Part shown: piece by piece, positions 32,651 to 59,375 of the stretch
How the letters are laid out: each line of letters begins with the position of its first letter
How positions within the stretch are numbered: position 1 is the stretch's first letter
Assembly: GCF_030684315.1 (NCBI RefSeq)
Contig: NC_081371.1
Location: 17,851,440 to 17,915,439 of the forward strand
Reading direction: 5' to 3'
From: Stegostoma tigrinum
Lineage: Eukaryota
Length of the DNA: 64,000 nucleotides
Notes under the pieces: generated by a model
The model's input: only the letters and a program-made list of their open reading frames with translations
The model's database searches: none
What the model was told of the DNA's origin: nothing
Position numbers and translations under genes: made by a program

Positions 32651-32724
32651 GTTGCTTGGCAAGGTTGTCCGTACTTACCCTCCAAACTTAAGTTATGTTA
32701 AGGATGGTAGGCACTTGGGACTTG

Positions 32725-32950
32725 AATTAGCTTTATTGTTACATGTACTCACATGAGTATAGTGAAAAGTTTACAAGTCGTCACTTACAGCACCATCTTA
32801 GATACAAAGGTACCAAGATACAGATTCTGGGGTACAAACTCTCAGGGGAAAAAAAAAGTAGAAAAATAGAGAAATAAAAAGTAAGCATTACAGACCAAGG
32901 TACAGAATCATAGTAATAATTTTTTTAAAAAGTAAATAAAAAGTTCAGAA
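32725..32950 (-). repeat. Unclassified interspersed repeat, second copy at ~49197-49409
   Basis: Shared aattagctttatt...gaaaagtttacaagtc.tcacttaca...ccatcttag.tacaaa...aaataaaaagttcaga; AATAAA near the minus-strand end. Confidence 0.75.
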
Positions 32951-33849: not shown

Positions 33850-34430
33850 CATGATATGGTGATGACATTATAAGCATGCCCTTCAAAAGGGTATATCGCA
33901 TATCCGCTGTGAGACATAACATAAAAGTGGTTGCGGGAGGTCAATCATTCTTAGTTCAATACAGTAGAGCTCCTCAGGCTAGTAAGTTATGTTCAACCAT
34001 CTTCAGCTTCTTCATCAATAACCTTCAGTCCAGCATAAAGGCAAAAATGCAGACGTTCACTGATGATTGCACAATGTTCAACACTATGCATAAATTTCTC
34101 AGATATTGAATCAGTCCATGTACATATGCAACAAAATCAGGACCACAAGTAGCAAGTAACATGCACACCGCACAAGCACCAGGAAAAAAATGACTACCGT
34201 TAAAAAGACAGAATCAAACCATCTCCATTTAAAATTCAAGGGTATTATGATCACTGAATCTTCCCCCCTCTCCTTGTTATCAAGACCTTCAAGATTCCCA
34301 CTGACCAGAAACCGAACAGAACCAGCTATATAAATACTGTGGTATAACAACAGCTCACAGGTTAGGAATTCTGTGGAGGATAATTCACCTCCTGTTTCCT
34401 CAGTGCCTATTCACCACCCACAAGCCTTTG
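33850..34430 (+). mobile_element. Old L2/CR1-like LINE RT fragment; related pieces at ~3300-3500, 9140-9640, 25270-25600 and 58350-59530
   Basis: PQASKLCSTIFSFFINNL..FTDDCT remnant; mutual similarity among the listed pieces. Confidence 0.6.
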
Positions 34431-35045
34431 AATCAGAGAGTTCCGAAGTTGCACGACACTGAGAAACAAAATTCTCCACATCTCTGTCCTGAAGCTTTCA
34501 GAGTCCCATAGTTCTGGACTGACTCACAACAGGAAACAGACTTCTCATGTCTTTATCAAGATCATTCAGGATCTTAAAACACCTCAATCAAATTACCCCT
34601 CAGTCTTCCATACTGCAACTTGCCCTTACGATCCCCTAAAATGTTTATGATTTTAATTTCTGTCTTTATCCCATGTGTATTTCCCAAATATGCATTTCAT
34701 CAACTAGAAAATTTAAAGTTTAAGTAAAAGGGAGCCGATTTTTTTTTTATTTTTCAGTTTGGTGTCTGCAAGAATAACTCAATGGGATTCCCGCTTCAAC
34801 CATTTTGAAAGCAACTTTCTCTGGAGATTTGGAGATTGCCATGGTTCATCAGAAAATTCAGATGCCAGGAAAAGAGAAGTTGCACCACTGAAATTACTAG
34901 ATCTTTATATGTATCGTCCTTCAAGGTCAGTGGGAAGCGCTGTTGCCTCACCACTAACCAAACCATCCAGTGCTATCTCTGTATAACAAAGTGTGGAACT
35001 GGATGAACACAGCAGGCCAAGCAGCATCTGAGGAACACAAAAGCT

Positions 35046-35073
35046 GACGTTTCAGGCCTAGACCCTTCATCAG
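35046..35073 (-). ncRNA. Minimal hammerhead motif (G-U at base of stem II)
   Basis: CUGAUGA-A-GGGUCUAGGCCU-GAAAC-GUC on the minus strand. Confidence 0.6.
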
Positions 35074-38000
35074 AGAGGGGGATGGGGAGAGGGTTCTGGA
35101 ATAAATACGGAGAGAGGGAGGCAGATCAAAGATGGAGAGAAAAGAAGATAGGTGGAGAGAGAGAGTATAGGTGAGGAAGTAGGGAGGGGATAGGTCAGTC
35201 CAGGGAAGACGGACAGGTCAAGGAGGCGGGATGAGGTTAGTAGGTAGGAAATGGAGGTGTGGCTTGAGGTGGGAGGAAGGGATAGGTGAGAGGAAGAGCA
35301 GGTTAGGGAGGCGGGGACAAGCTGGGCTGGTTTTGGGATGCAGTTGGAGAAGGGGAGATTTTGAAGCTTGTGAAGTCCACATTGATACCATTGGGCTGCA
35401 GGGCTCCCAAGTGGAATATGAGTTGCTGCTCCTGCAACCTTCGGGTGGCATCATTGTGGCACTGCAGGAAGCCCATGATGGACATGTCGTCGAAGGAATG
35501 GGAGGAGGAGTTAAAATGGTTTGCGACTGGGAGGTGCAGTTGTTTATTGCAAACCGAGCAGAGGTGTTCTGCAAAGCAGTCCCCAAGTCTCCACTTGGTT
35601 TCCCCAATGTAGAGGAAGCCACACCGGGTACAGTGGATACAGTAAACCACATTGGCAGATGTGCAGGTGAACATCTGCTTAATATGGAAAGTCATCTTGG
35701 GGCCTGGGATGGGGGTGAGGGAGGAGGTGTGGGGGCAAGTGTAGCACTTTCTGGGGTTGCAGGGGAAGGTGCCAGGTGTGGTGAAGATGGAGGGGAGTGT
35801 GGAGCGGACAAAGGGAGTTACGGAGAAAGTGGTCTCTCCGGAAGGCAGACAAGGGTGGGGATGGAAAAATGTCTTGGGTGGTGGGGTCAGACTGTAGATG
35901 GCGGAAGTGTCGGAGGATGATGTGTTGTATCTGGAGGTTGGTGGGGCGGTATAGGCAGACGGAACCCTGCCCACAGCCGACGACCTCATTGCTCCGCCCA
36001 CTACCTCCACAGCCAGCAACCCCAGAGAAGACAGCCACACTGAGCCCTGCCAAATCTTCACCATCCCCCCAGACCTCCACTTAACTGAGGACGAACGGTC
36101 AATCCTCAGCAAGGGGCTCACCTTTGTGCCCCTTCACCCACACATCAACTAATACCAGTCACATTTGGACATAGAGCAGTTTTTCCGCCGCCTTCGCCTC
36201 CTTCTTTAACCGGGAGCCTAACCCTCCCTCAACCGACCCCTTCACCCACCTCCAACACAAATCCTCTTCCTGGACACCACCTCCAGGCCTCCTACCCTCC
36301 CTCGACCTCTTCATCACCAACTGCCGTCGTGACAATAACCGCCTCAACCTCTCCACCCCTCTCACCCACTCGAACCTCTCCCCCGCAGAACGGGCAGCCC
36401 TCCGCTCCCTCCACTCCAACCCCAACCTCACCATCAAAGCCACAGACAAGGGAGGCGCTGTGGTAGTATGGCGCACTGACCTCCACATCGCCGAGGCCAA
36501 ACGCCAACTCTCCGATACTTCCTCCTACTGCCCCCTTGTTCATGGCCCCACCCCCGAGCACCAAACTATCATCTCCAATACCATCCATGACCTCATCACC
36601 TCAGGGGACCTCCCACCCACAGCCTCTAACCTTATTGTTCCCCAACCCCGCACGGCCCGTTTCTATCTCCTTCCCAAAATCCACAAACCCGCCTTCCCTG
36701 GTCAACCTATTGTCTCAGGCTGTTCCTGCCCCACCGAACTCATCTCCACCTATCTGGGCTCCATTTTCTCCCCCTTGGTCCAGGAACCCCCCACCTACGT
36801 CGGTGACACCACCCAGACGCTCCACCTCCTCCAGAACTTCCAATTCTCTGGCCTCCAACACCTCATTTTCACCATGGACGTCCAGTCCCTATACACCTGT
36901 ATTCCTCATGCAGATGGCCTCAAGGCCCTCCGCTTCTTCCTGTCCCGCAGGCCCGACCAGTCCCCCTCCACCGACACCCTCATCCGCCTAGCTGAACTCG
37001 TCCTTACCCACAATGACTTTTCTTTCAATTCCTCCCACTTCCTACAAAGATGGTGGCCATGGGTACCCGCATGGGCCCAAGCTATGCCTGCCTCTTTGTA
37101 GGTTACGTGGAACAGTCCCTCTTCTGCACCTACACTTGCCCCAAACCCCACCTCTTCCCCTGTTACACTGATGACTGTATCGGCACCGCCTGTTGCTCCC
37201 CAGAGGAGCTCGAACAGTTCATCCACTTCACCAACATCTTCCACCCCAACCTCAAGTTCACTTGGGCCATCTCCAACACATCCCTCACCTTCCTGGACCT
37301 CTCAGTCTCCATCTCAGGTAACCAGCTAGAAACTGATGTCCATTTCAAGCCCACCGACTCCCACAGCTACCTAGAATACACCTTCTCCCACGCACCCTCC
37401 TGCAAAAATTCCATCCCCCATTCCCAATTCCTCCGCCTCTGCCGCATCTGTTCCCAGGATGAGGCATTCCACTCCCGCACATCCCAGATGTCCAAGTTCT
37501 TCAAGAACCGCAACTTTCCCCCCGCAGTGGTTGAAAACGTCCTTGACCGCGTCTCCCGCATTTCCCACAACACATCTTACACACCCCGCCCCTGCCACAA
37601 CCGCCCCAAGAGGATACCCCTCGTTCTCACATACCACACCACCAACCTCCGGATACAACTCATCATCCTCCGACACTTCCGCCATCTACACTCCGACCCA
37701 ACCACCCAAGACATTTTTCCATCCCCACCCTTGTCTGCTTTCCGGAGAGACCACTCTCTCCGTGACTCCCTTGTCCGCTCCACACTCTCCTCCAACCCCA
37801 CCACACCCGGCACCTTCCCCTGCAACTGCAGGAAGTGCTACACTTGCCCCCACACCTCCTCCCTCACCCCCATCCCAGGCCCCAAAATGACTTTCCATAT
37901 TAAGCAGATGTTCACCTGCACATCTGCCAATGTGGTTTACTGTATCCACTGTACCCGGGATGGCTTCCTCTACATTGGGGAAACCAAGCGGAGGCTTGGG

Positions 38001-38578
38001 GACCGCTTTGCAGAACACCTCTGCTCGGTTTGCAATAAATAATTGCACCTCCCAGTCGCAAACCATTTTAACTCCCTCTCCCATTCCTTTGACATGTCCA
38101 TCATGGGCTTCCTGCAGTGCCACAATGATGCCACCCGAAGGTTGCAGGAACAGCAACTCATATTCCACTTGGGAGCCCTGCAGCCCAATGGTATCAATGT
38201 GGACTTCACAAGCTTCAAAATCTCCCCTTCCCCAACTGCATCCCAAAACCAGCCCAGTTCATCCCCTCCCCCCACTGCACCATACAACCAGCCCAGCTCT
38301 TCCCCCACTGCATCCCAAAACCGGCCCTGCTTGTCCCCACCTCCCTAACCTGTTCTTCCTCTCACCTGTCCCTTCCTCCCACCTCAAGCCGCACCTCCAT
38401 TTCCTACCTACTAAACTCATCCCGCCTCCTTGACCTGTCCGTCTTCCCTGGACTGACCTATCCCCTCCCTACTTCCTCACTTATACTCTCCTCTCCACCT
38501 ATCTTCTTGTCTCTCCATCTTCGGTCCGCCTCCCTCTCTCTCCCTATTTATTCCAGAACCCTCTCCCCAACCCCGTCT

Positions 38579-38606
38579 CCGATGACGGGTCTAGGCCCGA
38601 AACGTC
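38579..38606 (+). ncRNA. Hammerhead motif with mutated core (CCGAUGA), probably inactive
   Basis: ccgatgacgggtctaggcccgaaacgtc. Confidence 0.5.
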
Positions 38607-39339
38607 AGCTTTTGTGCTCCTCAGATGCTGCTTGGCCTGCTGTGTTCATCCAGCTCCACACTTTGTTATCTTGGATTCTCCAGCATCTGCAGTTCCCATT
38701 ATCTCTGCTCGCTATCTCTGTATATCATGTCAGTCCATCTACTGCCCCCTACTGTCAGCCTACTGAACCAACTCCCAGGATTGCAATGAGCCACACCATA
38801 TATCTAGTTAACTGTTTTGAAGAAGGCCATCATCGCATAACATCATCCTTCCCTATCTCTACATCTTCCTTTAGCACTACAATTATCCCATCTTCCAATG
38901 TGCACTGTACAACCATTGTCCATTTCCTCATATTGGCAGCTGTCTGGAAATCACATGCTGGAATTCACTGTGTTATCCATCAACCTCTGTGTTTTTCTCT
39001 CTCTTCCTTCAGCTACTTCAAGCACCCTTATTTGTTCAAGATTTTACCCAATTACTCTTCTTAAAAATGTTTTGTTCTTTGTTTCAGAGTTCATTTTTAC
39101 AATTGCCGCCTCTGTAAAGCTCCTTAGGAAAGTTTTCTATGCAAAAAATAGTATGTAAATCAACATTATTAGTTTACATTTGGTATACCACAATACACAC
39201 AAAAGACATTGGAAATATTCAAGCAGGTGCTGGAGGTGTAAAAGCAAGTTCAAGGCTGATGACCTATCAGTATTGGGAAAAGTTGAGAGATTCTAAAGTG
39301 GGGAAAAGAGCCAAATTAATTACAAAATGCAAAAACAAC

Positions 39340-40080
39340 AAGAGTTTTGAACAACAAAAGGGATAACATTGCAAGGTACAGGAGTTAGTAACGGGATAAG
39401 AACCAAGTTATATGTCTATGGGAAATACACATGAAAACTGCAAAATCATTGAAAGCTGCCATCTGAAAAAGGCGGCACAAGTTACGATCTGAAGTTGCCG
39501 AACTCAATACTTAATTTGGGCAGCTGTTAGGTGCTCAACTGAATTTTGAGGTGCTGATCGTTTAAAAAAAATAAAATTCAGTCGGAACACTACAGGAAAT
39601 AGAAGAGGCACACATCAGAAAGGGAACCAGGTAGAGATTTAATATAACAGGTGACCACAAATTACAGGAAACTGTGCTGTGAACCGCAAATACAATGATA
39701 AATTGGAAGAAGTGCCAAGTAAATCATAGTTACACTTATCAGGAGCATCTGAGGTCCTAAAAAGGTGCCAAATAAAAGGTGAAGGGGTAGGTGTAACAAC
39801 TGTAGCAGTTCTTTGAGAAAAGGAGGAAAAGTTGATCGGAGTGTTGTAGACGGAACAGTCCCTTTGGAATGCTAATAAAAAGGGAAGATCAAGGGAAATG
39901 TATCTGTTGGTGTCACCGGAAATAGCAAAATATAATGCCATCCTTCTCATGCATTGATTAAGTATGAAATGGAGTAGAACCCTGTTGTAGTTCCAACAGG
40001 GAGAGGAAGGGGTGAGCAAAAGTGTGGGAAATAGAATAGACACAGTTGGAAGTTGTGTGGAGGGGATCTTCAATTGAGGA
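39340..40080 (-). mobile_element. Highly decayed PLE fragment
   Basis: LLAFQRDCSV and NRVLL remnants resembling LSAFRRDHSL and DRVPL of the intact PLEs. Confidence 0.55.
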
Positions 40081-40189
40081 AAAAGACAAAATAAAATGGG
40101 ATGCTATGCCTAATTCTTCTTCTATGTGCTCAAATTATACTTTTCACACATCAGCTACCAATTGAAGGCCTTCACGTGCTGTTAGTGTC

Positions 40190-40520
40190 AGCAGTAGTTC
40201 AGTTGGCAGCACTCTCACCTCAAAGTCAAAGTTACAAGACTGCAACAGAAAAATCAAAGCTGATCCTCCAATGCAGTAATACGGAAGTGTTCCACTATCA
40301 GAGGTGTTGCCTTTCTGGAGGTCCTGCTTGTCAGATTACACTAATATACACTGTACTATTTTGAAGAATAGCAACAGTTATCCCGTTGCGCTCGACAATA
40401 TTTATCCCTGTCAGTCAGATTATCTAGTCATTCCTGCATTTCTGTTTGTGGAACATTAGTACTGGCAACTTAACAGCCATACTTCCTAGATTGCAACAGT
40501 TACTACACCTCAAAAGTACT
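40190..40520 (+). mobile_element. Old Deu-domain SINE (SacSINE1/AmnSINE-like); related pieces at ~25900-26110 (+), 43310-43460 (-) and 57590-58170 (-)
   Basis: tRNA-like head remnant and caatatttatccct...gattatctagtcatt...ctgtttgtgg...caacagttactacacctcaaaagtact core (recalled family features). Confidence 0.6.
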
Positions 40521-40524
40521 GCAG

Positions 40525-40850
40525 TGACCAAAGGCCCCATTCCCACGACATACAGGACTACTGTAGTGTACAAAATACTGTGCAAGGACTGCCAAAAACA
40601 TTACATTGGACAGGCAGGAAGGGAAGTAGCCATCAAGACACATGAACACCAGCCAGCATCAAAACAACACGACAAACTTTCCCTCATTTCAGTACACTCA
40701 GACAACGAAGGCCACCAACTTAACTGGGACGACATGACCATCTTAGCTCAAGCTTAGACACACACGGCAATTTCGAGGGACCCGATTCTCTAACTGTAAT
40801 GCTATCAATAAACATATGGAATTAGACCCCATATACAAACCCTTGCTGTT
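40525..40850 (+). mobile_element. GIY-YIG endonuclease fragment of a different PLE clade (Poseidon-like)
   Basis: VVYKILCKDCQKHYIGQAGR...HEHQ...SVHSDNEGHQLNWD. Confidence 0.8.
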
Positions 40851-43800
40851 GCAGTTACAACAGTTCTACTACCAAACTCTTGACATTGCCAGAATGATTA
40901 CAGCATTGATTGACCAGCTGCCAGAAAATGGGACTTCCTTGCACTAAAGGGTGAAAGTTCCTCTTCTCCCTTTTAGCACCCACCCCCTTTGCTTTTCATT
41001 TTAAATACACGTAGAGAATGTTTTCTCTAAGCTGCACGGCCATATGGCCACCGAGTTGTGTGTCAGGTCCACACAGACCAATTGGCACATCTTCTGATTC
41101 CAGAAGTTACTACCACACACAGATCACAGAAATCTGTAGAACAGCAAAAAAAAATTCAGGGAATTGAACCCAATAAAACTCTTGTTATCCACCTTTTACA
41201 TTCCTAGCTAGCTTCCTCTCATGCTAAAATTTCTGTCTTTCTATTAACATTTAATCATGCTCTGCCATTCCTAGTATTTTGTCCATACACCTGACACTCC
41301 ACTCACCTTTGTGTGAATATATGCTTTCCTTAATATTAAGTTAACCATGCACAGTTGGTCCTCCCTTTAGAATTTTTCCCCATACTTGTAATATACTTAT
41401 TCTGAGAAGTTCTCCGGTACCTTGTACCGTTTACTTATTTTTGCTATATGAGGTCACTATACTGCCAGCATAAATGAGTAATGAATTTTTTTTTAGAAAA
41501 GTATAACATGCCATATAAATTTATGTACAAAAACAGTAATATCAAATCACCACAATAATTTTTTCACTTAGCAACTGATATTTGCATAAAAATCATATGC
41601 AACATATTCTTAAAAAGGATCGTGTGTCAGCAAAACAATCCATGCAGAAGCCTTGAATTCACACCTACTGCCCTCTTTTAAACTTTTAATGACAAAAAGG
41701 TTCCTTCCTATTCTGCATTCCTCATCTCCTACAGCCATGGGCAGCAAGAGGTGACCTGTTTGCACAAAGCCAGGAATTTAAGCCAATATACCTCAACAAA
41801 ATGAAATTTCTGCACAATTAAAATGCACATATATTACAAAATGAAAGGCACACAAACAGAAGAAAATTCTTGGCAATTTATGATGACTAGTTATTTTCTT
41901 GCCTAACACAGTATCAATAATAATTTTCCATTCTGCAAATGGTACGTTATTATGTACTGCAAAATGTTGCTAAGCAACAGCTGAGCAATCTTAACTCAGT
42001 TCCTGAATTATTGTTTTCTAGATAATTATAAATTTTCAGAATTATGCTTATTTTGGGCTTTTTAGTATGGGCTAACCTTGAATGAGCAATTTTCTTAAAG
42101 GCAAAAGGTATTTGAATGCAATAAAAATATTCTCAAACATTTTATCTGACCTTGGCAATGATCTAGCTTATAAGCATTTTCATTCTACTGTATTGATTGG
42201 TTCAGGATTTGAAAACTCTGGCAACCATCACACATGTAGGATTTCACTAATTATCACTATCTCAATGATATTTTTAAAAATTTAATAAGCAGCACAAATT
42301 GTAAATCAAACATGATGTATGAATGGAACTATTTCAGTCTTCCTCCATGCCACTGCTGACAGACTTTAATAAAGAATAAGGTCCTCAAAAAAAAATCTGA
42401 AAACTCAAGGTGGATTAGTTATTATCACCATAGAATGCAACCCAAAAGGGCAGTAACAGAGACTCGAGTCTGGAACACCACAGTACTCAAGAGGATTGAA
42501 GAAAATAAACTAGGTTTATTAATTGCAATACATTTTTTAATCAAGTTTGAGCCAAAAACAGCCCATGTGGATTTTTTGGGCAAGTCACGTTTACTAAGTT
42601 TAATAAGTGTTGTTTAAAGCAAGTCTGTTTGGATAGATAGAGATAATGGGATAAAGACACAATAAAGTAGGGTACTTCAGTTAAGGTTTTTCAGAGAATG
42701 CAGCTACATGATCCAACAGAAAATTGAACATCCTTCACAGAAAATTACAGAGTAAAATTGACATTCTCTCATTAGGGAAAGGTTGAAGGCCCAGGGATTT
42801 TTCTCGTGCTCAACCTTTTTTCACTATGATTTGGACTCCAATTTAGGAAAACATTCACAAAATTTGTAGACAGTATTAAAAATAAAGGATATCTGCCAAA
42901 CAGTAGAAAACAAACATTTCAGTAAGACAGATTGTAAGAGATCATATTATTTTTCTTTTTTGGGCCTATATGGCTGAAATACCAGCACAGTTTTACAACT
43001 TGGAAAAGTCAGATGCTGCATGTTTAGCTGTTCAAAGCAATGTTGTTTTTCAAAGCAATGGAGGAGAAACCTTTACAGACATTCAGAGTGGCACTGACAA
43101 TCTTTGAGTTAATGAAATTCAGCCTGACTATAACCCTCTGGTTGTAATGAATTACAGCCGAACCAAAGAAGCAGAGATATCCTCAGCTCGCAAACTGAAC
43201 ACCCCTCTCAATCCAATTTAATTTTGCTCAGTGATTACGAGAATAAAGTTTTTAAAAGGAGGAGGGTACACTCAAGGGAAGCAAACGAGAGCAGATAAAA
43301 CCCTGAAAAAAATATCTTTCACAATCTCGGAACAGTCCAAGTGCTTTAGAGACAAAGTATTATAAAGTATTCGCACTGTTGTAGTGTAGAAAAACAGCAA
43401 TCAATTTGTGCACAGCAAGCTCCCACAACTAGTAACAGAAAAAATGGCACTCTCTGTTTTTGCAATTCATTATCTTGTCCAGCATCACTTATCTTTCTTT
43501 ATTCCATACGACTGTTGACATTCAAATGTAGTTGCCATGTTTACGAGGTACAAGATTATTTTCTAAGTAGCATTCTATTCAATCCACTCCACACGTGGTG
43601 CGTGTTCTTCCACTGCTCATTATTGTACAATTGAATGCACCTGTGACCAGAACATTCATCACTTGTGGAGGCTTCTTGTGGCCAATGTAATTTCTTTACT
43701 CATATTGCCTTATGACTTTTCTGTGCTGTGTCATTTCAAAAAACCTTACCTGTCCCATTTTTGACAAGTCATTACATCAATGAAACAAATTATAGGGAAA

Positions 43801-44917
43801 AAAAACAGGAGAAACTTAGCAGGTCTTGTACAATCTCTGGAGAGAGAAACAGAGATAATGTCAAGTCCAAGATGGCTTCTTTATCTGGTCACCAACATTC
43901 TCATGTCCCCAGTAATAACAGGATCAATCATACTCTACCTAATCTGACTGAAAGAAAAGGCTGCAACATAACAGAATCTGAAAGGAACAATGCAACAGTC
44001 AAATCAGAGGTGGAGTAAAAAGCCTCTTAGTTCATTATTTTTAAATAGAAGTCAGCATTGATCTAGAAAATGTTTAAAAACATTACAGAAACATGCCTTC
44101 TGAAATCCTAGAAGTGTTCTCCCGTTCGTTAAGTTTTTGAAAACCTTTTCATTTTATTTATGCTCAAACAAATTATCAATTTGTTTATTGAGACATTCCT
44201 AATTAGGTGATTTTATCATCTCATTAATATTTAAATCCTTCAAGTCTCCAGCATTCAGAAGAAGAATGATGCCTACAACTGCCATATTTTGTAGATATTC
44301 ACAAGCACTGTAACATGATGACTACTGGAACACAAAGATAAAATATAATAGTTTTTATTCTTCCATTCTGTTCAATCCCACGTTGTTGCTATTGTTTACT
44401 AAGTCTTCCAAATACAACCACTATCAGATAGAAATTAAGAAAATAGTCACAGCCTGAGCCACGTTCCTTCAATTTTTTGACCACCATTAGAATGCAAATT
44501 CGCTGACACCTTTAAACTCCTCTCCCTACAGAAACATTTTGGCTCTTGTTTGACGCCCTCAGATTTGAGTTACAAGAAAGTATTTTGGCTGAAAACTTGG
44601 GATCAATCACAATATAACATTTATAAATTAAACCCTTTAAAATGTACCGCATCCATATAATAAATATTTGAAAACAGAATTTCCTCTAAGGGATTGCATT
44701 ATATTATATCTAAGGGGCCAACAATTACTTTTGGCACTTAATGTACTCATCCATCATAATAAAGCAATTAGATCAAGATCTCATTTCTAAACAGATTACC
44801 ACTTACTATTTGTTTACTGCAGTGTTTAGTGTAACAGAATGAATACTTCAATGGCTAGAATCCCATATCTACTGAAACTTTTTCCAGCACAACAATAAAT
44901 CAATACTTTAACTGAGG

Positions 44918-44947
44918 ACACACACACAACACACGGACACACACACA
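44918..44947 (+). repeat. Imperfect (CA)n microsatellite
   Basis: acacacacacaacacacggacacacacaca. Confidence 0.85.
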
Positions 44948-47149
44948 TGCTCCCTTTTTAGTTAAACCAACTCATGCAAGAACTTGTTACAAAATTACTT
45001 CCTAGTTCCAGTCAAGGCTCAAGGCAATGATGCACAAAAATTCTCACGCAGCAGAAATGTGGAGAATTCAATCAGGCTTTAGAAGTTTTTTTTGGCACTA
45101 CACAATTCATTGCAAAGAAATACTAAGAAATCAATTTCGATGTTTTGGAGTCACAGACAGTTTCATAAAACAATTCACTTCTAGCATTTTAGGAAGGAAA
45201 AAATAATTTGAAATGGACTCTTCCAAACTGGTGAAAAAATGGCGATTTCAAAACAAAACCAAGTAATACCCGATTCCCTCACAGGTCTTTGGGGCATGAG
45301 GCAGGCATTTCACTGCCTCACTTAGCTCGTACAGGCCAACTATCAAAACAGTACAAATTTCTAAAAGAACAATAAATCTTCATCAGATTTCATTCCAACC
45401 TTGAGATGGAAGTAGTTCCAATGAGATAAAATATATATTCCAACGGCCTGATTTGGAAAATTTCATCTAAGTTCTATTTCACAAAACAGCTCAGCAATAA
45501 GACAGTTTTGGGACTAAAAGAAGAACTCAGTGGAAGGCACGTTTTACAATCGACTGTGTAAAACGATTGGTTGCAAAGCACATGTTCAATATTATAGGTC
45601 ACAAATGACAAATCTTGAATTATTTGTTATACGATCTAAACTATAATTAAGACAAATCAAAAGGAAATCAAGTCAACCTACCAGTGTGAACAATATAAAT
45701 TTTCTTTAAAATCTTTAAAATGCAGCTTACAAATAAATAACTGAATTTCTGATCAGTTCAATTATTCTAAACAATTCACAATACCCAAACACACTCCCAG
45801 CAAAAGTACAAAAACTCCTTCTATTTTCCTTAAAAAAAATCCCTTCCAAAGGGATCCCAAAGCAAAATGCACAACATTGATAAATATAAGCCATAGCGTA
45901 GCTGAATGGGCTTAAAACAAATAAATCTTGACATTTGTTCCATATGGTGCAGTACCGCCAAGTTGATGCTGCTTGCAGCTATCTCTACCAGAAAATCTAC
46001 TGCAATGACGTTTACACAAACATGATCCTCACTTATCCACTTTAGTTCATCTGCAACTGTTTCTATGACACTCAACATTCAACTATGCCTATGTCAACTC
46101 TATTTCTGCTGCTCTCTATTTTGGCCTCTAGAAAAGATCAATTGTAGCTTTTCAGCTCTTATCAAATGACTGAACTGGCACACTCTTTTCTGGGTGTCAA
46201 TTTTGAAAGTTTTTCTTTCCTCTTTCAATTTCAAGTACTTTTTCGTTTACCTTATGAGTTGTATGTGGAATTATAATCCTGCATTTTAGCAACCACATCT
46301 CAAAGGCTTTTATCTTCCTTTCACAGTTCCAGGTTTCTGAAGCAAAACAAGAAAGCGAATAAAACTTACCAACTTATGAGTTTTTTCCCATTATGAGCTT
46401 GGGTTTTCTTGGTGTCAACAGTCCTTCATCTTGAAATTGCTTCTAGTTCATGCTTCTTTTCTGCACCCATCATTTCATCATTTCTCCTCAATAGACGTGC
46501 TTTTCCAACATGACATCATCTGCATCAATACTCACTATATTTTTCTAACATATTCGTTCCAAATACTTTTTTGTTTTCTCTTTCAGGTTTGTTCTCAATC
46601 CACATTCTAAATGCTGTATTTTACCTAATCCATGATATTTTCTAGGGCCTCTTCTAATTCTACATGTAGCACTAGGTCAGCACAACACCATAGCTTGTAG
46701 TGTTCTTGCATCCAATGTTTACCCTTAGAAGTTCAATTAATTCTCTGAATATTTACTCTGTATACAAACTGTATAATTTTAGCAACATTACACAGGCTTG
46801 TCATACTCCTCTCCATACTTGAAGCATATCAGATTTTCCAACCTCTAACCCGACACTCTCCATTCAGAGCAAACGTAGGCTCTCGACAATCTTTACCATC
46901 CATATCACATTTCAAACTTAACAATGAACTTTTGATGATAAATGTAATGATTTTATTTTTCACTGTTATTGTTTGTCCTTTTCTATGCAACACCATCCAC
47001 ATCAATCTTAGCTAGCTTTTTCTAACATATTCCTTTTAGCCATTTTATTTGAGATAATGGGAACTGCAGATGCTGGAGAATCCAAGACAACAAAATGTGA
47101 GGCTGGATGAACACAGCAGGCCAAGCAGCATCTCAGGAGCACAAAAGCT

Positions 47150-47177
47150 GACGTTTCGGGCCTAGACCCTTCATCAG
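47150..47177 (-). ncRNA. Minimal hammerhead motif
   Basis: CUGAUGA-A-GGGUCUAGGCCC-GAAAC-GUC on the minus strand; flanks GAGAGCU/AGCUUUU can form a 7-bp stem I with two G-U pairs. Confidence 0.75.
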
Positions 47178-47183
47178 AGCTCT

Positions 47184-47211
47184 CTGATGAAGGGTCTAGG
47201 CCCGAAACGTC
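47184..47211 (+). ncRNA. Minimal hammerhead motif
   Basis: ctgatgaagggtctaggcccgaaacgtc. Confidence 0.72.
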
Positions 47212-48023
47212 AGCTTTTGTGCTCCTGAGATGCTGCTTGGCCTGCTGTGTTCATCCAGCCTCACATTTTGTTGTCTCAGCCATTTTATTTGGCTCTGTTT
47301 AGTATTTGGTCCACATTCTAAGGTGCTGAATTTTACTTGATCCATGATATTTTGCAGGGCCTCGTCTGATTCTGCAAGTTGTGCTAGATCATCAGCATAT
47401 TACAGTTTGTAGTATTCTTGCATTCAACTTTTACCACTAGAAGTGCATCTAGTTCTCTGAATGTATATTATTATATGTACAAATTCTTGCTCATTTCTAG
47501 ATATTTGTCAAGGGTTGTTCTTAGGTTAGATATTCTGTCTCTTGTTCCCATTCCAGGTCTACTTCCAGACTGGGTTTCACCAATTTCAGCTTGCGTTATT
47601 TCTTTCTGCTATGATTTTCAAATTTGTTTGAATGTGATGACTTGTTCAACCTTATAGTTCTAGTTACTGGACTCCATTACTTTTGTTTCTTATGTAACTT
47701 CATGAATAGATGCCTCAAACAACTTGAAACATATCCTTTGGTATAAACTTGAACATGAATTTCTCCTTTTTATTCATTCATAGGATGTTGGCATTGCTGG
47801 GCCACCAGTCGCCCATTTGGGATTCCCCATATGAAAATTAAAAGTCACATTGCTGTGGGTCTGGAGTCATATGTAGGCCATAGCAGGTAAGGACAATATT
47901 AGTGAAGCAGGTGGGTTTTTCCAACAATCAATGGTTTCATGATCAATAGATTCTTTATTCCTGATTTTTACTTAATTCAAATTCAAGGTTCAAACCAGAG
48001 TCCCCAGAAAATTAGACACAACA

Positions 48024-48418
48024 AGTGCATAGGAGGTTGAGAGGTGACCTTATAGAGGTTTATAAAACAATGAGAGGCATAGATAAGGTGATCAGCAAAG
48101 GTCTATTCCCTAGGATGCGTGAGTTCAAAACTAGGAGGCATATTTTTATGGAGTGAAGGAAAGATTTGAAAGGAGCCTGAGGGGCAGGATTTTCACACAA
48201 AATGGTTCATAGGTGGAATGAACTGCCAGCAGAAGTGGTAGATGCAGATACAGTTACAACATTTCAAAGACATTTGGACAAGTGCAGGAATAAGAAGGGT
48301 TTAGACGCAGATGGGCCAAAAGCAGGTAAATGAGATGAGTTTAGTTTGGGAAACGTGGTCAGCATGGACGAGTTGGATCAAAGGGTCTGTTTCCATGCCG
48401 TATGACTTTATGGCCTCA
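48024..48418 (+). mobile_element. CR1 3' end; near-identical inverted copy of 48703-49089
   Basis: Direct read-through comparison with the reverse complement of 48703-49089. Confidence 0.9.
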
Positions 48419-48702
48419 AGTGAGATTATGGACTGAAATTTTGGAGTCACAAGCTTGAAGGCAGAAATGTTCTCATTGATCTATATCCAACACCTGTACT
48501 AAAACCTCTTTCAAAATTTAATTCCTTGTTTTCAGATTCCTCCACGTGCTTGCCCCCTCTATCATCTTAATTTTTTCCAAAATCTTGACTACTCCAATTT
48601 TGTTCTATTACATATTTACATTTATTGCTCCAACTTTGACAGCTGTGTTTTCAGCTACCAAGGCCTTGAAGGAATAAATAATAAGAATTTAAATGATTTA
48701 AA

Positions 48703-49740
48703 TGAGGCCATAAAGTCATACAGCATGGAAACAGACCCTTTGATCCAATGCTGACCACATTTCCCAAACTAAACTCGTCTCATTTACCTGCTTTTGGTCC
48801 ATCTGCATCTAAACCCTTCTTACTCCTGCACTTGTCCAAATGTCTTTGAAATGTTGTAACTGTACCTGCATCTACCACTTCTGCTGGCAGTTCATTCCAC
48901 CTATGAAAAATCTTGTGTGAAAATCCTGCCCCTCAGGTTCCTTTCAAATCTTTCCTTCACACCATAAAAATATGCCTCCTAGTTTTGAACTCACGCATCC
49001 TAGGGAATAGACCTTTGCTGATCACCTTATCTATGCCTCTCATTGTTTTATAAACCTCTGTAAGGTCACCTCTCAACCTCCTATGCACTAGTGAAAGAAG
49101 TCTCAGCCTATCAAGCCTCTCCTCATAATTAAAACCCTCCGGTCCCATTAACATCCTGGTAAATTTATTCGGAACCCTCTCCAATTTAGAACATAAAATT
49201 AGCTTTATTATCACATGAACTCAAATCAGTACAGCGAAAAGTTTACAAGTCATCACTTACAATGCCATCTTAGGTACAAAAGGCACCTAGGTACAGAATC
49301 TGAAGTACTAATTATTAGGGAAAACAAATTAGAAAAATAAAGTAGGACAAAGTCCAGCATTACAGATCATAGAAATAAATCAGATAACTAAAGAAATAAA
49401 AAGTTCAGAGCATTGAGTATAGCAGTTCAGGCCTCAACAATGATGTCCAATTCCTATACTCAGTGGTCTCAGCAATGAAGGCAAGCATGCCAAACACCTC
49501 CTTAACCACCCTGTCTACCTACGATGTAATTTACAAAGAACAATGTACTGAACCCTTAGACCTCTGTCCTACACACTACCGATGGCCCTACTTTTAATTG
49601 TATAAGTCCTGTCCTTGTTCATTTTACCAAAAAAGCAACACCTTGCATTTATCCAAATTAAACACCATCAGCTACTTCTCAGCCAATTGGCCCAAGAGAT
49701 CATGGTCCCTTTGTTATATCAGATAATCTTCTTCACTGGG
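48703..49740 (-). mobile_element. CR1 3' half interrupted by the unclassified repeat (~49197-49409)
   Basis: LERVPNKFTRML...RRLRGDLTEVYK ORF fragment; RT remnant resumes after 49410. Confidence 0.88.
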
Positions 49741-50729
49741 CTAAGGTAGGCCTTTCTGCTACTCTCTCACTCTTCTCCGTTAAACCACTTAAAACTAGTC
49801 CCTTTGAACAAGTTTTTGTTCGCCTGTCCTAATGTTTTGCTTTATGAATCTTATTGGATAAAACATTTATGAAGTGTCTTCAAGTGTTTTCCTACACGAG
49901 TGGTGTTATAATAAATGCAAATCATTGTAGTAAATGTATTGACAAGCGATTGTTGGAGATCATTTTGTTCATTTATAATCAAAACTCAGGTAATTTCAGT
50001 ATTTGTAAAGTTATTAGTTTTGTATAGCTTACTAGTACAATAAAACTTCATGGGAGTAGCAGACTTCATTAATCCTAAATTAAGCAAAAAATAAATTAGC
50101 ACATAAGAAGAATGGCAAGGAAGGTCATGTGTTCCGATGGCAAGACGCTGATGTCATCAAAGGCAAAAACATCTGCCGTAAGAGTCTGAAGCTGCAGAAA
50201 CTTCAGGTCAAACTTTGAGTTGGAAGCTATGCACAATGGGGAGAAGAAATTACGTGGACACACTTTAGGGATCACAGTGCCACTTAGAAAAAGGTCAGTA
50301 GTCAGAAACAGGGAAGTATGGCTGCAGGTGAGGCAGGTAGGAGAACCCAGAGTGTAGGAGTTTCAGCCTTTGCAATTGACCAAAAGGTGCAAGATTCTTT
50401 CATCATGTTTGAATGAGATTGGGGCTGCAGAGTGTATGAGCCAACAGACCATAGCACCATGGTAGAAGAAGCCATTCAAAAGCGGGAAGCAAAAAGCATT
50501 GTAATGATAACGGGCATCATTGTCATCAGCACTCACTAACTAGCGAGTATGATTATCCACACAAAATTCTGTGTCACTGGTCATTGGGTATGTGGGTCCT
50601 TGTCTGGCTGACGAGTCTAATCCTAGAACCACATCTCCAAGCACACATTTAGGAGGTTTTCCCAGGTGGATTAGGTTCATTATCTTGAGGTTGCTGGCCT
50701 TCCTTTCTCTGTACTTCCTCTTGTTGATT

Positions 50730-51450
50730 GGTGTTCTCAAAAAAAATTTTAATACCACATACAGGAGGTTCCTCCAAATCAGTTTGAGTGAAGGTTTTCC
50801 ACATGTTAACATTTAGGATGCATTTCTTGAGGGAAGCCTTCAGGAATCTTTGAACACCTCCTCTTGTTCTGAGTGGCTTCCTTAAGCTGGCCGAAGATGA
50901 TTTGCTTTGGTAGTTGGAACTCGGGCATCCTAAAGATGTGGCCATGCCAACTGTGTTAGTTTCAAATGATTATGGTTTTGATGCTGATGCTAGTGGTTAC
51001 TTCAAGAATTTTGATGTTAGTATGCCTGTCTTCTCAAACAACTCTAATGCCATTTCTTGAGGTGTCATCTACACAATGTCCAAATTTTGGAGCCATATAC
51101 AGGAGTCAGAAAATGTCTACCTTATATGAAAGGATCTTGGCATTAGTATTGATATCATGGTTGTCGAAGACTCTCAACCATAGGTGCCCAAAGGCAGTGC
51201 GTGCAGATTGATGTGGAGATGCAATAACGCATCCAATGTCAATCTTAGGTGAGAAGTAGCTTCCCAGGTATGGGAAATGTTCCACATTTGGAAGGATTTC
51301 TCCACTGATCTTAATAAAGGAAAAGACAAGAATTTGCCCTGGAGTTTGTCAGTAAAGGATGAGTTTTTGAGGTTGAGGCAGAGTCCAATTCTTTGGTATG
51401 CTTACATGAAGGCATTAAGCAAGGCATTGAGGAGATTAACACTGTTCTCT
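50730..51450 (-). mobile_element. RTE-clade LINE fragment inserted within a decayed + strand CR1 ORF1 region (~50110-52100)
   Basis: HFPYLGS and RGGVQRFLKASLKKCI remnants. Confidence 0.7.
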
Positions 51451-54400
51451 GTAGCAAAGATCAAGAGTCCAGAAGACTATATTACATACCCAGTGCAAGG
51501 GTTCAGGATATCTGCTGGAGAGGAACTTAGAGTGGGAAGGATCCAGTGGATAAGGATCATGTCAGTATCAAATACATATAAAGATAAGGAAAGAAATTCT
51601 GTTTATTCAGCTTGAGGAGCTAGGTACCTAATTAAGCTGCAGAAATCAAAGTTGATAAACTATTATTTCCCAAATAATGACCTAAGCCACACGCAAAAAC
51701 GATTACTGAAATGAACGCTGTGGCTCAAAGTCTGCAGTGAGAGAAATAGGTTCTGGTTTGTGTTGCACTGGCACAAGTACTAGGGAACTTTTTTGGCAGG
51801 GGGGTGTGGGCGCGATAGGCTATACCACTATGATGGCTTACATTACACTTCGCAAGGGCCACTGTTTTAGTCAGTTGCATGATGACAGAAGTAGCAAAGG
51901 TTTTAAACTAAATAGTGGTGATCGGGGATTATGCTTGGGAAGATATGGTAAATCAAAAGACGTAAATAAGTCGAGAGAGAACAACATTAGTATGGGAAAT
52001 AATATACAAATTTAAGAGTTAATCAGCGTATAAGGCTGAAAGTTTCAAGAATAATTAAAGGGCAAAACTACAGGTCCTTGGTTGCACGTAGCATTCGAAA
52101 CGAAACAGACTCCACTGCCAACTCAGTCTATCATAATCCTTTTTGCTGTAATCAGGTGATGTCCTGTACTTGCAGGTCTTATACTGTGCCAGGTCTCCTT
52201 TGGATGGTCCCCATCTTCTCCCAGCTGGTGTAACCTATTCAACTGTCATTTTGGTAGGGTAAACACAATCAGGAAACAAAATTCATTCCCTCTCGACTGC
52301 CTTTGATATAATGTCCTGTAGGTACCTTTGACCAGTTCACTGTAACACTTCTTCATTGGTGACGTTGCCTTTCAAAGTAATGCTCAGGAACATGCAGAGG
52401 GAATACTGATGAGAGGCATGCAACTTAGTGACACACTAACTTCTCTTGCATATCTCACAGATATAAACTATGGTTAATACTATTTTCGACATGTATTAAA
52501 GCACTGTAAAGTAATAACTTGGTACGTACTGACTCAGAAGAGTTAGATGTTGCTTAAATCAAATTCAACATCCTTCAGAAATGCCAACTCAAAAGTCTCA
52601 AATGCCACATTGTGAAAAGTGCTGCATAAAAGGCTACAAATTGATTTGTATTAATTTGGTACCAATCTTGAAATAGTAGCTAATTAAGCATAATAAATGT
52701 ACTTACAATATAGGGTTATCTCAAGCAATGAGTGTGAAGAAAGGTGAGCTAAACAGAATTACTTCAATCAAAATTGAGTAAAACAAGGATGAAATGGAAT
52801 GAAACATAGGTGACAAAGCATTTTTAAAAAAAAATACAAATTCTATGAATCAAAAGGATGAAAAAGATCCTGCATTTGCCAAATCTACAGATGAAGTTGA
52901 AAAAGACTCAAGTGTCTTAGTAGGTGCAACATATAAAACAATAGAATATCATGCTTTCTGCTTAAAAATATAGAACACAAATCAGTGGAATTCAGGACCA
53001 AAACTCAGAATGACCTATTCAAAGTTGTTGATGGTCACTGAGGCATGGGAGGCAGTCAAGCACTCAATGTAGAACAAAGCAATGGAGGTTGATCAGCGTC
53101 AAAAATATGGGTTGTCAGGAAACACTGCAAAAACTTAGGCAGCCAGGTCTCAAACGAAGGGCATTTGTAAGCAAGAGGCATATATATAATTGATGAAATA
53201 GAATGTATGTGGCTGGAATCATACATTGACTTAAATCATGAAAGGACAAAGAAAACAGTAATTTTTGTATGGATGAATCAAGTTTATTAAAACTGCTTCA
53301 CCATTACCTTATGATCTATTTCACTCGTATTATGTGCAGGTTGAAACCGACAATATTCAAACTCAATAGCTCATATTGGACCTTCTGCAAAAAAAAATTT
53401 GCTTACTTTCACCTCTCCAGTATGAACATCTTTGCTGTTTCTCCCCTTACTCCAATATGACAAGCAATGCTATGAAGGCATTTGCATTTCTTCTGAAGTA
53501 ACTGTCACCTCACTGTAATTGCTCTGAGGCCAGAAAAACTTGGGACAACTACAATTACATGTGCAAAGCATATTAAATTAGAGGCTAACTTATTAACATG
53601 ATTAAATATACCAAATATCATCTCACAGCAGGTTGGCTGTGTGTCTTTCGCCCCACCTACACACAATCCTTTTTTTTGCCTATTTACCCTAACCCTGATC
53701 CATAAATAAACCAAACTGCCCCCCCATGATAAAATACTCTCCAATGAGTCGATGACTCAATTGCCTTGCTGAAAGACGTTACCCTCCACTATGCAACATC
53801 TGATACAAATGGCAAGTGGACTGGAAATTATTGCATCTTTTTCCTGAGAAAACAAAGCTGGTCATAACTATGGATGAAAGTTCTTGAATCAGAACATCAA
53901 AGCCGGAAAAGTGTGGAATGTGCTTCAACATGGTGCAGTTGAAGTGATTTGCATGGATACTTTAACAGGAAAGGCATATTAGATATATACAAAGGAGAAC
54001 ATACTAGCAGGATATGCGGAAAGACTGACATGAAGTTAGTTGAGAGCAGGCTCATGAGAACCACACTGCTGAGAGAATTATTTCCATGCTGATAATTCAA
54101 TGTAAAATGAAGTTCAGTCTAAATAAAAGCCTTGTCCATACCATAATTTTAAGCTTTACTTTGTCTTCACTGGTCGCCCGTGCTTCCTGATGATGGTGAC
54201 ACTCAGTCAGCTTTTTGACACTACATTTAAAAATCCTTCCATGGCTGAATTCATCATTTTTCTATCACCTCCTCTTGCCAAGTGTTTAAAAAGTCCCTAA
54301 CTGCCCTCTTTTATTCTTACTTCATCACTGGAAAAACCTTCAATTTCTCTTGAACCCTCTCCTACATCTTCTATACCTGGTGACCACTTTCTCCAGTTTA

Positions 54401-55385
54401 AAGATCTCTTTGGATCCATTTTGTACTTCAACATACTTCGATTTGGGGAAAAAATATATTGCTCTTAGCTTGATTTAGAAAAAAGGTTGGACCAGTTTCA
54501 AATGGAGAACTTTGTTTTTTAGGAATGTTAGCCTTCAAACTCAAAATGCTGCCTATATGCCAGAAACAGGCACTACAAAACATTTCAAAGCTTCAAACAT
54601 GAAACTTAATCTATGCTTATCAAAATAGCATGCACTAAATGTACAGATAGTTGGTGTCCTTGCACATCACAAAACAAAAAATAACAGAACATATTCCCTC
54701 ATTAAAAATGTTGAATGTTCTCTCAATGATTCATAACCAACCTGTCGTATAATTTTCTAATCTTTTATGGCTGCGTCTCCCACAATTTTTTTATTTCTAG
54801 GTGTCTTGCTCAGCGTCCTATTCAAGTTGGGAACATCAATGCCAGTAGATTACTTGCTTCATTAAATCGAGAAATATATTTTACAAGGCACAATGATAAT
54901 TAAAGAACGGTTACAGCACGGACAATGGTCATTCAATAGTCAAGCCCATGCCGGTCCTCTGCAAACATAATTTAGCTTATCCTGCTCCCTGTCCAGGATA
55001 CTGGTTGTGGATGATCAGCCATGATCATAATGAATGGTGGTTCTGGCTCAAGGGGCTGAATGGCCTACTCCAGCACCTACCGTCTATTGTCTGTCGTTTT
55101 TCCGTTGTCATGCCACTATTCTTCCCACCAGGTGTTTATCCAATTCTCTTCTGAAAACCACAAATGAATCAGCCTCCACAGCCCTCCATGGTATATCAAA
55201 ATAGCTTACTGCAGGGTAATTTTTCTCATGTTGCCTTTCGTTCTTTTGCCAATGAAAAGAGTGAACAATAAATGCCAGCCCAGCCAGCAAAGCCCACATC
55301 CAATAAGGAGGGGGAAAAAAAAAGGCAATTTTAAAACATGAATACAGTTTAATTTCCAGAAATGGTATCATTGATAAAAATATTT

Positions 55386-55670
55386 GGTGGGTATGGTGGC
55401 TCGGCATTCAGTACTGCTGCCTCACAATGCTGTGGACCTGGGTTCGATTCCAGCCTTGGGTAACTGTGTGTATGGACTTCGCACGTTCTCCCCATAATTG
55501 CCACTTTCTTCAGTTTCCTCCCAAAGTCCAAAAATATGCACATTAAGTGGATTGGCCATGCTAAATTGCCCTATAGTCTCCAGGGATGAAAAAGTTAAAT
55601 TGATAAGCCATGTTAAATGCGGGTTTACAGGAAAAGGGTGGGAGACTGGGTCTGGGAGGGTTGCTCTTTG
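55386..55670 (+). mobile_element. HE1-like V-SINE (3' truncated)
   Basis: tggctcggc A-box-like and gggttcgattcc B box; V-domain core. Confidence 0.85.
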
Positions 55671-56169
55671 GATAAATAAATATCTTACATGCGTATGCAC
55701 ATCCAGGCAACAGACTGGATATCTGGAGACAATTTTGCAAAACACTTGTCTTAACAGAACATTGAAAGTACCTTAACTTTTGAAAAAGAATACTCTAAGT
55801 AAACAAATGTAGGCTCCAGTTGCGGCACCTATGAGATACAAGTTGTGATGTTCTTCTGACCTTTTTTTGCTATTTTCGTTGCTTTTCTTCAAACTGTTTT
55901 AAATGGTAACTTAAAATCAGTTAAAATTTATAAGACTTTTTAAATCAAACATTCTGCCCTCCCCATAACCAAAACATTTTTGCCCCCCCCAACACCAGTG
56001 TTTCCATCATCAAACCTGCCCTGAAGTATGAGCTAAACCTGTCAGATTTTCCATCCGCCCAACCAACCACGTCCTCCCACCACGCGCACCCCTCCCCCCG
56101 CCCCACCCCCAACTTCGAATTTAGGTTTTACTCCTGTGGCTTTTATTATCCCACCATTTGATCCTAACT

Positions 56170-56520
56170 TAGAACTTCACAGAATATCTACCATGTGGAA
56201 ACAGGCCATTTAGCCCGACAAGTCCACACTGCCCCGAGGATCATCCTACCCAGACGCATCCCCTCCTATCCTTTCCTGTAACCCTAAATTTCCCATGGCT
56301 AATCCACCTCATTTACACACCCCTGGACACCATGGACAATTTAGCATGGCCAATCCACCTAAGCCACACATTTCTGGACTGTAGGAGGAAATCAGAGCAC
56401 CTAGTGAAAACCCACCTCATGGAAAGACACAGGGAGAAGGTGCACACTTCACAACTTCCACCCAAGGGTGGAAATGGAACCTGGTTCAGTGAAGCAGCAA
56501 TCTCCAACTGTTGTTTTTCT
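56170..56520 (-). mobile_element. HE1-like V-SINE
   Basis: Reverse complement of the SINE core and CR1-derived tail. Confidence 0.8.
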
Positions 56521-57763
56521 ACCCCGAGTATCTATTTTCCAGACTCCTGCTTGAGCCAGTTTTTGCTTCATCTGCCCACATTGCTTATCCTGGCAACTCT
56601 AGGTTTCTTTTCATCGTTTAAATGTCTTTTTTATTGCCCTTGAATTTATCCTTGTGCTGACATTGCTGACTGTTTATCATTCCTTTCAGGAGCGTAGATT
56701 TTTGGGGTGAGAAACAGAGGGTTTGTGGAAGGAGGGGGGTGAGTGTGAGGGGGAGAGAAATTTGGGGGTGAGGGGGAAAAGAGCAATAGAATGGAGAAAT
56801 TTGAGCTGAAGACGGGCATACAGGGAGATTTTTTTTTAAAAAGTGTATGGAATGTTCAGAAATGTACATTTAATGGTACAAGGGAAAAGAATTCAGTGAA
56901 TTTCTCATGCAAACTACTTCAGGCCCATCTAACCTAACTTTTAAGAAAGTTGCACTAAAAAGTTAACATTCTAATCATCTTGCTAACCAAACCATCCCAG
57001 GACTTTATTCTGCTCCTCATGGACTCAACCTGATATGGCCTATGCTACTACTCTTGCATTCAGCTTTTCTTTCCAATTGTTAATTCATGGTGATGCTCTT
57101 TTTTCCCCATTTTTGCTCCTGTACTAGTCATGGTTTAGGAATCAGGTCACCTTCCCTGCGTTTTACTTAACTTCTTGCAGCACACATTGCTCCAAAATCT
57201 TCACTGCTTTCCTTTTTTTGGCCTGGAAAACTAATACCTTATAAAGTGCTTTCCAAAATAATTTTTATTACGTTTGAATAGCATCTACGATATTAAGTGC
57301 TACTTCCGTACTTATTCTTATGTTTTGAGTAACAATTCACCAATTAGGTGTCTGAGAAGTTATTTTTTCAAATCAGCTAGATCAGCTGCCATCCATCTGT
57401 ACAAACCTGTAGGCTTCTTGCATGGCAAATCCCTGTAGCAAGCTTCACATAAACGCAGCTAATAAAATTTTGGATAAAGCTGACAAAAAATAGTCAGCAT
57501 TTTAAAGCAAACAACTACATTTTCTCAACTTGTTCTGTCATTTCTCTTTGATTAAAAAAAACTGCATTGTATCAAGGTACCTATACATTAAAACAAAAAG
57601 GAAAGATTTGCATCTCTCCCACAATTTCAGAATGCTCCAAAGTATAACCAGATGTACTTTCTTTTGAAGTGCAGTCATTGTAGGAAAACGGTATCCAACT
57701 TGTAGACAGCAATGTCTATCAAAAGCATTGTCACAATAATAAATAGTCAGTTTCTGGTGTTAG

Positions 57764-57969
57764 ATAACAAAGTGTGGAGCTGGATGAACACAGCAGGCCA
57801 AACAGCATCTTAGGAGCATTAAAGCTGACGGTTCGGGCCTTGAAGGGTCAAGGCCCGAAACGTCAGCTTTTGTGCTCCTAAGATGCTGCTTGGCCTGCTG
57901 TGTTCATTCAGCTCCACACTTTGTTATCTCGGATTCTCCAGCATCTGCAGTTCCCATTATCTCTTATCA
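57764..57969 (+). mobile_element. Short palindromic PLE-end insertion inside a Deu-SINE
   Basis: Imperfect TSD CAGTTTCTGGTGTTAG (57748-57763) / CAGTCTCTGATGTTAG (57970-57985); arms meet inside hammerhead stem II. Confidence 0.9.
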
Positions 57970-59321: not shown

Positions 59322-59375
59322 GAGCAACAGTGAGCAGGTTATTGAAAAGAGCAACAGTGAGCAGGTTATTGAAAA
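59322..59375 (+). repeat. Perfect 27-bp tandem duplication
   Basis: GAGCAACAGTGAGCAGGTTATTGAAAA x2. Confidence 0.95.

Follow-up and report, generated by a model that had tools for sequence, protein, structure and literature searches.

The 64,000-nt stretch of Stegostoma tigrinum DNA analysed here (the window) contains a short palindrome with a hammerhead ribozyme motif on each strand, and its nature was in question: it could be the minimal product of integration of a Penelope-like element (PLE) or a MITE-like unit that spreads by itself. Self-comparison of the window confirmed the perfect palindrome reported in a preliminary description, the inverted arms (47085-47179 and 47182-47276; 95 nt each) being 100% complementary around a 2-nt spacer, as well as the perfect 14-bp target-site duplication (14/14 identical). 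The insert spans 47052-47277, or 226 nt (Table 1). The letters CUGAUGA-A-GGGUCUAGGCCC-GAAAC-GUC were found on each strand, as had been described; on the plus strand, in the tailless arm, CTGATGA occupies 47184-47190, stem II 47192-47203 and GAAACGTC 47204-47211.

Table 1. Coordinates of the palindromic insertion, its host intron and related insertions in the window (the slash in AG/CT marks the junction)
Feature	Position	Strand	Remarks
PHF21B host intron	18215..62701	-	Lies between exons 62702-62962 and 18113-18214; holds the insertion
Left target-site duplication, 14 bp	47038..47051	+	Exact repeat; site empty in organism B
PLE tail, 33 nt, one arm only	47052..47084	-	From comparison with family copies including L086
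Tailed arm, 5'-truncated pLTR	47085..47179	-	Core begins at 47177; predicted cut between 47150 and 47149
Centre CT, 2 nt	47180..47181	+	Extra element bases of the right arm; junction AG/CT
Tailless arm, 5'-truncated pLTR	47182..47277	+	Predicted cut after 47211
Right target-site duplication	47278..47291	+	Exact repeat
Long insertion of the same family	34983..38704		Tailless inverted arm and tailed arm; 14-bp duplication
Two-arm insertion of the same family	16702..17269		Tailless arm ~440 nt; 15-bp duplication
Short two-arm insertion of the same family	30405..30581		15-bp duplication
Short two-arm insertion of the same family	57762..57962		Decayed duplication, 6 nt found

The insertion is real and younger than the split from organism B, a relative with ~5% divergence (49 differences in 910 nt), because contigs from two same-organism runs bridge the flank junctions (46300-47071 and 47255-47872) with 0 differences and contigs from two organism B runs join 47043 directly to 47283, that is, across an empty site. 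This evidence concerns the flanks: the palindrome centre is crossed by no contig, and the same 28-nt centre is present 401 times in the assembly.

The surrounding intron of 44.5 kb belongs to a minus-strand gene, PHF21B, an exon of which shares 98% identity with the whale shark protein and so marks the host as a shark. The landing site is itself an older local duplication with a period of ~710 nt and 77% identity (46513-46755, 46990-47035 and 47310-47467). A different repeat in the intron forms an inverted pair of ~398 nt with 94% identity (48021-48418 and 48703-49092). Elsewhere in the window are a 394-aa LINE reverse transcriptase (RT) frame at 733-1917 on the minus strand (RVT_1, E=2e-24), which is presumably CR1/L2-like, and an older PLE copy at 12131-13705 with 66% identity to the young family's RT region.

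Parent element

The four other window copies are also inverted two-arm insertions. Each of the five family insertions in the window is a head-to-head pair of one tailed and one tailless arm, and four of them retain a duplication of 14-15 bp. At 16702-17269, the tailed arm ends at the 5' edge of the ribozyme. A sequence variant shared by both arms of the palindrome is, as first noted, absent from the other window copies; however, it is a subfamily marker and not private, since it recurs at ten fetched loci (two of them overlapping at one place). A 94-nt arm identical to the window arm occurs at two loci (L010 and L105).

The tailed arm of the long insertion at 34983-38704 carries a broken RT and GIY-YIG frame with a DKG motif and a CX2-5CxxC linker. 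DKG and VVY...YIG lie within 36175-38042 and supply the RT and endonuclease (EN) combination expected of EN+ PLEs, the GIY-YIG match (E=7e-4) being under the Pfam cut-off. The N-terminal RT frame (36175-37098) gave no Pfam match. Among 112 longer homologues, which include no named reference sequences, most contain RVT_1 and some GIY-YIG. Further EN+ PLE hallmarks were found: in a tandem copy (L086) the pLTR bears the hammerhead and the 33-nt tail continues directly into the start of the element body, and the copies are inverted and 5'-truncated, with a one-sided tail of 30-40 nt and a target-site duplication of variable length.

In the window copy, the linker motif is present as CNCRKCYTC. CX2-5CxxC in the RT-EN linker defines Neptune/Nematis in the available text of PMC8557442, and its occurrence in the shark ORF points to a parent element of the Neptune/Nematis type rather than Poseidon. 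The Penelope/Poseidon clade, which requires absence of the motif, was rejected. The family is very abundant, with 92,176 exact matches to a 28-nt segment of the arm across the 3.2-Gb genome. The 226-nt insert exemplifies the shortest common version of the usual head-to-head insertion of this apparently Neptune/Nematis-type PLE, and is one among thousands of short inverted insertions of a known retroelement kind.

Several features of the family copies were noted in passing. The element ORF includes a GC-rich repeat of 12-18 nt, variable in number, that codes for PTEPRPRP-like units (window 35953-35990 and L076-L093); many long copies are truncated close to it, the query having selected copies that reach there. 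A 200-kb stretch without N (C3:50000001-50200000; L154-L173) contains zero family arms, whereas the C22 block averages roughly one every 7 kb. At one locus (L081), a truncated element has its 5' end joined to a stretch, ~700-480 nt upstream of the match, that resembles 28S rRNA.

The palindrome as a candidate mobile unit

The preliminary description took many identical junctions as a sign that the palindrome propagates as a unit. Copies of the exact 28-nt centre were indeed found, the 401 copies representing 5.8% of the 6,927 palindromes whose arms are joined here within 14 nt. However, this test is misleading, because the first 50 listed of the 6,927 already comprise about 30 types of junction (hand count; the window type appears four times) and the identical junction is found in both tail orientations in both main subfamilies. 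At the loci with the identical centre (30 plus the window), exactly one arm is tailed in 29 of 31; in 10 of these the tail belongs to the arm that is shorter at the centre and in 19 to its partner. Arms diverge by 3.9% within a copy, against 7.4-7.5% between same-side arms of different copies; duplications of 12-18 nt share no motif, and both outer termini are ragged. These observations on isomers, divergence, duplications and termini argue for repeated fresh formation at a hot spot, with no master element.

A MITE- or retrozyme-like non-autonomous unit, copied whole and with ribozymes active on both strands, would account for the 401 identical centres and for 28 parsed copies of 221-233 nt, but it conflicts with the diversity of junctions, the two isomers in both subfamilies, the closeness of arms within a copy, the motif-less duplications, the ragged ends and a ribozyme fold 61 kcal/mol uphill. 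It is scarcely credible as an origin of the palindrome, and the MITE-like option is largely refuted. A MITE has fixed termini, a fixed short duplication and a single master unit, none of which applies here; a non-LTR retrozyme is built of units in direct tandem, every one of them bearing a type I hammerhead, and the window insertion is an inverted pair. The other origin first considered, the minimal product of PLE integration, is supported by the two-arm, one-tail layout that the palindrome has in common with the family insertions.

Family census

A census of 378 arms in ~1.05 Mb combined junction-, tail- and arm-selected loci with contiguous stretches. Only 270 of the 378 arms, and 22 of 38 within an unselected contiguous 264-kb block, belong to inverted pairs; other insertion forms therefore exist. 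The 131 inverted insertions comprise 113 with a tailed and a tailless arm, two with two tails, two with no tail and 14 with a damaged arm. Where the duplication is at least 12 nt, the tailed-plus-tailless layout accounts for 85 of 89 insertions and a damaged arm for the other four, and no insertion is two-tailed or tailless. An added check of the one-tail rule at a further 20 loci yielded one two-tailed case. Duplication lengths peak at 14-15 nt (9 or less in a mismatched-flank control), and the layout is constant over insertion lengths from 117 to 5,050 nt. Tailed and tailless outer ends have the same ATTATCT motif, 33 nt apart, and each is ragged over ~10-15 nt.

Stop sites were scored in 72 insertions, after removal of 33 junction-selected insertions, the window copy and seven with complex centres; six junction-selected loci that are also among the first 100 matches of the arm search were retained. 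Stops at element positions -4 to 3, position 3 being the first base of the ribozyme core, account for 42 of the 144 arms. Of the 72 insertions, 19 have a tailed arm that extends further 5' than its partner and 27 a tailless arm that does so, which reveals no polarity. Arm lengths are correlated (Spearman 0.75), some arms within one insertion differ by more than 1 kb, and in 11 of 41 pairs off the hot spot the two stops are no more than 5 nt apart (2.0 expected by permutation). Rare variants common to both arms number 22 (1.5 expected), with 21 in 81 short insertions and one in 27 long ones, a contrast that might reflect preferential homogenisation of arms in short palindromes or simply the greater age of the short set. 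Arms of mixed subfamily occur in four of 94 typed pairs and in six of 103 at column 57. One example is a 228-bp palindrome with a 12-bp duplication (L002; C1:5797649-5797876), whose arms may derive from two templates or from later conversion. At another locus (L058:1428-2610), the arm junction carries a 24-nt insert with telomere-like AACCCT repeats.

Formation of the inverted insertions

Taken together, the palindrome is a short head-to-head insertion of the hammerhead-bearing PLE end, likely a dead one-off that was primed from both nicked target strands and joined mid-way. The observed duplication suggests that the GIY-YIG nuclease would nick the two strands ~14-15 nt apart. The tailed arm would then arise from a 3' end that primes at the outer ATTATCT of the RNA, and the tailless arm from the second 3' end, which would prime at the inner ATTATCT 33 nt away. 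The one-tail rule and the repeated motif are observed; priming at these sites is proposed by analogy with PAc (Poseidon of Anolis carolinensis), for which the available text of PMC11167929 describes cutting and extension of both strands in vitro, two RNA start sites that bound the tail and a predicted dimer. Each cDNA would run to the 5' end of the RNA or to a stop, which in the window copy falls on the C residues immediately preceding the ribozyme core and is probably where the transcript begins. The cDNA ends would finally be joined through 2-4 nt of self-complementarity, typically AG/CT, with filling of the gaps. The templates would mostly be one RNA, or RNAs of one source.

The upstream stops sit on C at positions -1, 1 and 3, after a pyrimidine run, a sequence that resembles a TCT-type initiator. 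An extra C copied from the cap might give self-complementary GC ends and AG/CT joins. Contigs of four putative RNA runs over L144:250-800 displayed neither a start nor an end. A splice acceptor was rejected as the cause of the upstream hot spot, there being no AG at positions -4 to 3; in D. virilis, an intron ends at helix I, according to the portion of PMC4209133 available.

Priming from two sides is favoured by the pairing of a tailed with a tailless arm in 85 of the 89 insertions with a duplication of at least 12 nt. The correlated arm lengths, near-equal stops and shared variants fit two enzymes working on one RNA, and they fit equally well a fold-back process in which the 3' end of a single cDNA folds back and the second arm is copied from it, to be cut or stopped 33 nt short. 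Self-priming of this kind would explain the near-symmetric junctions, the subfamily agreement in 90 of 94 pairs and the shared rare variants, and a related model has been proposed for Adineta Penelope elements in the accessible part of PMC3846280. However, it does not account for the lack of polarity between tailed and tailless arms (19 versus 27), for arm pairs that differ by more than 1 kb, for arms of mixed subfamily, or for a tailless end that is ragged at an RNA motif just as the tailed end is, and both strands were extended from RNA in vitro (PMC11167929, available text). Fold-back is thus unlikely, even though later gene conversion among the ~10^5 copies could have produced the mixed-subfamily arms.

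Long palindromes are unstable, and the hot spots could be rejoining sites and not RNA ends if longer inverted insertions had lost their centres through cruciform or hairpin processing. Such secondary shrinkage would agree with the microhomology or templated inserts seen at many junctions. However, the self-complementary 4-mers nearest the centre are little used (CTAG in four and GGCC in three of the first 50 listed of 959 palindromes), and ACGT is the centre of one of the first 50 listed of 1,783, compared with 30 of 50 for AGCT at the predicted cut. In addition, one arm may stop at a hot spot while its partner stays long, and in the window copy the arms match throughout and the duplication is perfect. 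Shrinkage is therefore very improbable as a general cause, and two-sided priming is retained as the preferred explanation.

Ribozyme fold and predicted cut site

The conserved core and helix II identify the motif, by its letters, as a minimal type I hammerhead; Rfam at the gathering score gave 0 matches in the window. Contiguous stem I measures 2 bp on the plus strand and 7 bp, including two G-U pairs, on the minus strand. The 7-bp stem I highlighted at the outset thus exists on paper, but the 95-bp hairpin is favoured over it by ~61 kcal/mol. Forcing the hammerhead in the whole insert costs this amount relative to the hairpin on either strand, against 7-9 kcal/mol in a single arm, and the initial idea of an ambisense ribozyme is consequently unsupported. 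Whichever strand is transcribed, the complement of the ribozyme is made before the ribozyme itself. Both ribozymes would be passengers: when the host intron is transcribed, the hairpin is predicted to hold them locked.

AGCT starting at the predicted cut forms the centre of 30 of the first 50 listed among the 1,783 palindromes whose arms meet just downstream of the ribozyme. By extrapolation, ~1,070 palindromes are centred there, compared with ~40-80 at neighbouring self-complementary 4-mers, and a 2-nt AG/CT site nine bases further on is used in seven of the first 50 listed of 2,136; these centres were counted by hand, with anchors of slightly different stringency. Twenty cut-site loci, which span several subfamilies, comprise 18 with one tail, one with two tails and one tandem with a unit ending at the same base. 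Asymmetric 5' ends at positions 30, 31, 32 and 33 number 624, 1,220, 541 and 590, the search pattern for position 31 being a third stricter than the others.

The clustering of junctions at the predicted cut is suggestive of cleavage in vivo, confounded by microhomology. It is suggestive only, because many position-31 ends can borrow AG from the partner arm, which counts against the cleavage reading, four of 30 position-31 cases checked turn out not to be ends but small deletions or changes inside longer arms, and positions 34-45 are as dense in stops as 29-33 in the 72-pair sample. Direct tandem units downstream of the ribozyme start at or beside the predicted cut at four loci (L258, L221, L236 and L243), which would fit repeated copying of a cut RNA fragment. 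A tentative wider reading is that the junctions could be a fossil record of RNA ends, with a dimer priming at two copies of the motif, both enzymes running off one shared 5' end, and that end formed by either a capped start just upstream of the hammerhead, as in the window copy, or a hammerhead cut.

Comparison with known systems

The two-arm, one-tail architecture is already published, and the window copy is a further instance. Pen2a of Adineta vaga (PMC3846280) and the general EN+ PLE scheme (PMC8557442), as far as their available texts describe them, likewise show an inverted, 5'-truncated copy placed head to head, a tail of 30-40 nt confined to one arm, a short duplication and a junction palindrome. 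Unlike Pen2a, the window palindrome lacks a coding body, and its family has duplications of 14-15 nt instead of 8-10 nt; in addition, ~10^5 shark copies permit a census that reveals a near-strict one-tail rule and fixed stop sites.

In the PAc element, as presented in the available part of PMC11167929, the hammerhead likewise lies upstream of two start sites bounding the tail, and the tail has the same position at the pLTR-body junction (in the shark, L086). AT-rich targets are shared, although the shark duplications have a mean GC of 37%, near the window background. PAc is a Poseidon element, whereas the CX2-5CxxC linker places the shark ORF with the Neptune/Nematis type. Its authors did not find RNA reads with an end at the ribozyme cut, where the shark insertion junctions cluster.

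Minimal hammerheads of metazoan PLEs (PMC4209133, available text) have the same CUGAUGA...GAAA...GUC core, an unpaired base before helix II and a palindromic residual helix III. In contrast to them, helix II of the shark element is predicted at 4 bp and helix I at 2 bp, the latter resembling D. virilis Penelope. Opposite-strand pairs of minimal hammerheads, 100-700 bp apart, are in print for Schistosoma in the same source. Non-LTR retrozymes (bioRxiv 10.64898/2026.07.22.740005, available portion) are similarly non-coding, PLE-derived and equipped with a type I hammerhead, but they are direct tandem repeats with one ribozyme per unit, and the shark insertion is an inverted pair. In the open-access literature searched, no treatment of two-sided PLE priming or cut-site junctions was found, nor any open-access paper on twin priming in PLEs, shark PLE ribozymes, template switching or structures.

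In L1 twin priming, a second target nick primes a second cDNA, and the resulting inversion is joined by microhomology. The route proposed for the shark family would share this second-nick priming and microhomology joining. However, the two L1 cDNAs cover different parts of the RNA, whereas the shark cDNAs cover the same part, which is why a palindrome forms.

Implications

The single palindrome is ordinary, and the interest lies in the family census. It bears on how PLEs build inverted one-tailed insertions, a question left open in the available texts of PMC8557442 and PMC3846280, and on cutting in vivo by minimal PLE hammerheads, left open in those of PMC4209133 and PMC11167929. It also yields exact predictions about RNA 5' ends and the outcome of a two-RNA assay. 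If the hammerhead-cut 5' ends are true, they would be in vivo evidence of cleavage by minimal PLE ribozymes and of retrotransposition of the cut RNA. For the shark genome, the thousands of palindromes of 65-95 bp, one of them in an intron of PHF21B, are potential sources of double-stranded RNA and cruciforms; at the palindrome described here, long double-stranded RNA from the host pre-mRNA and cruciform extrusion are plausible.
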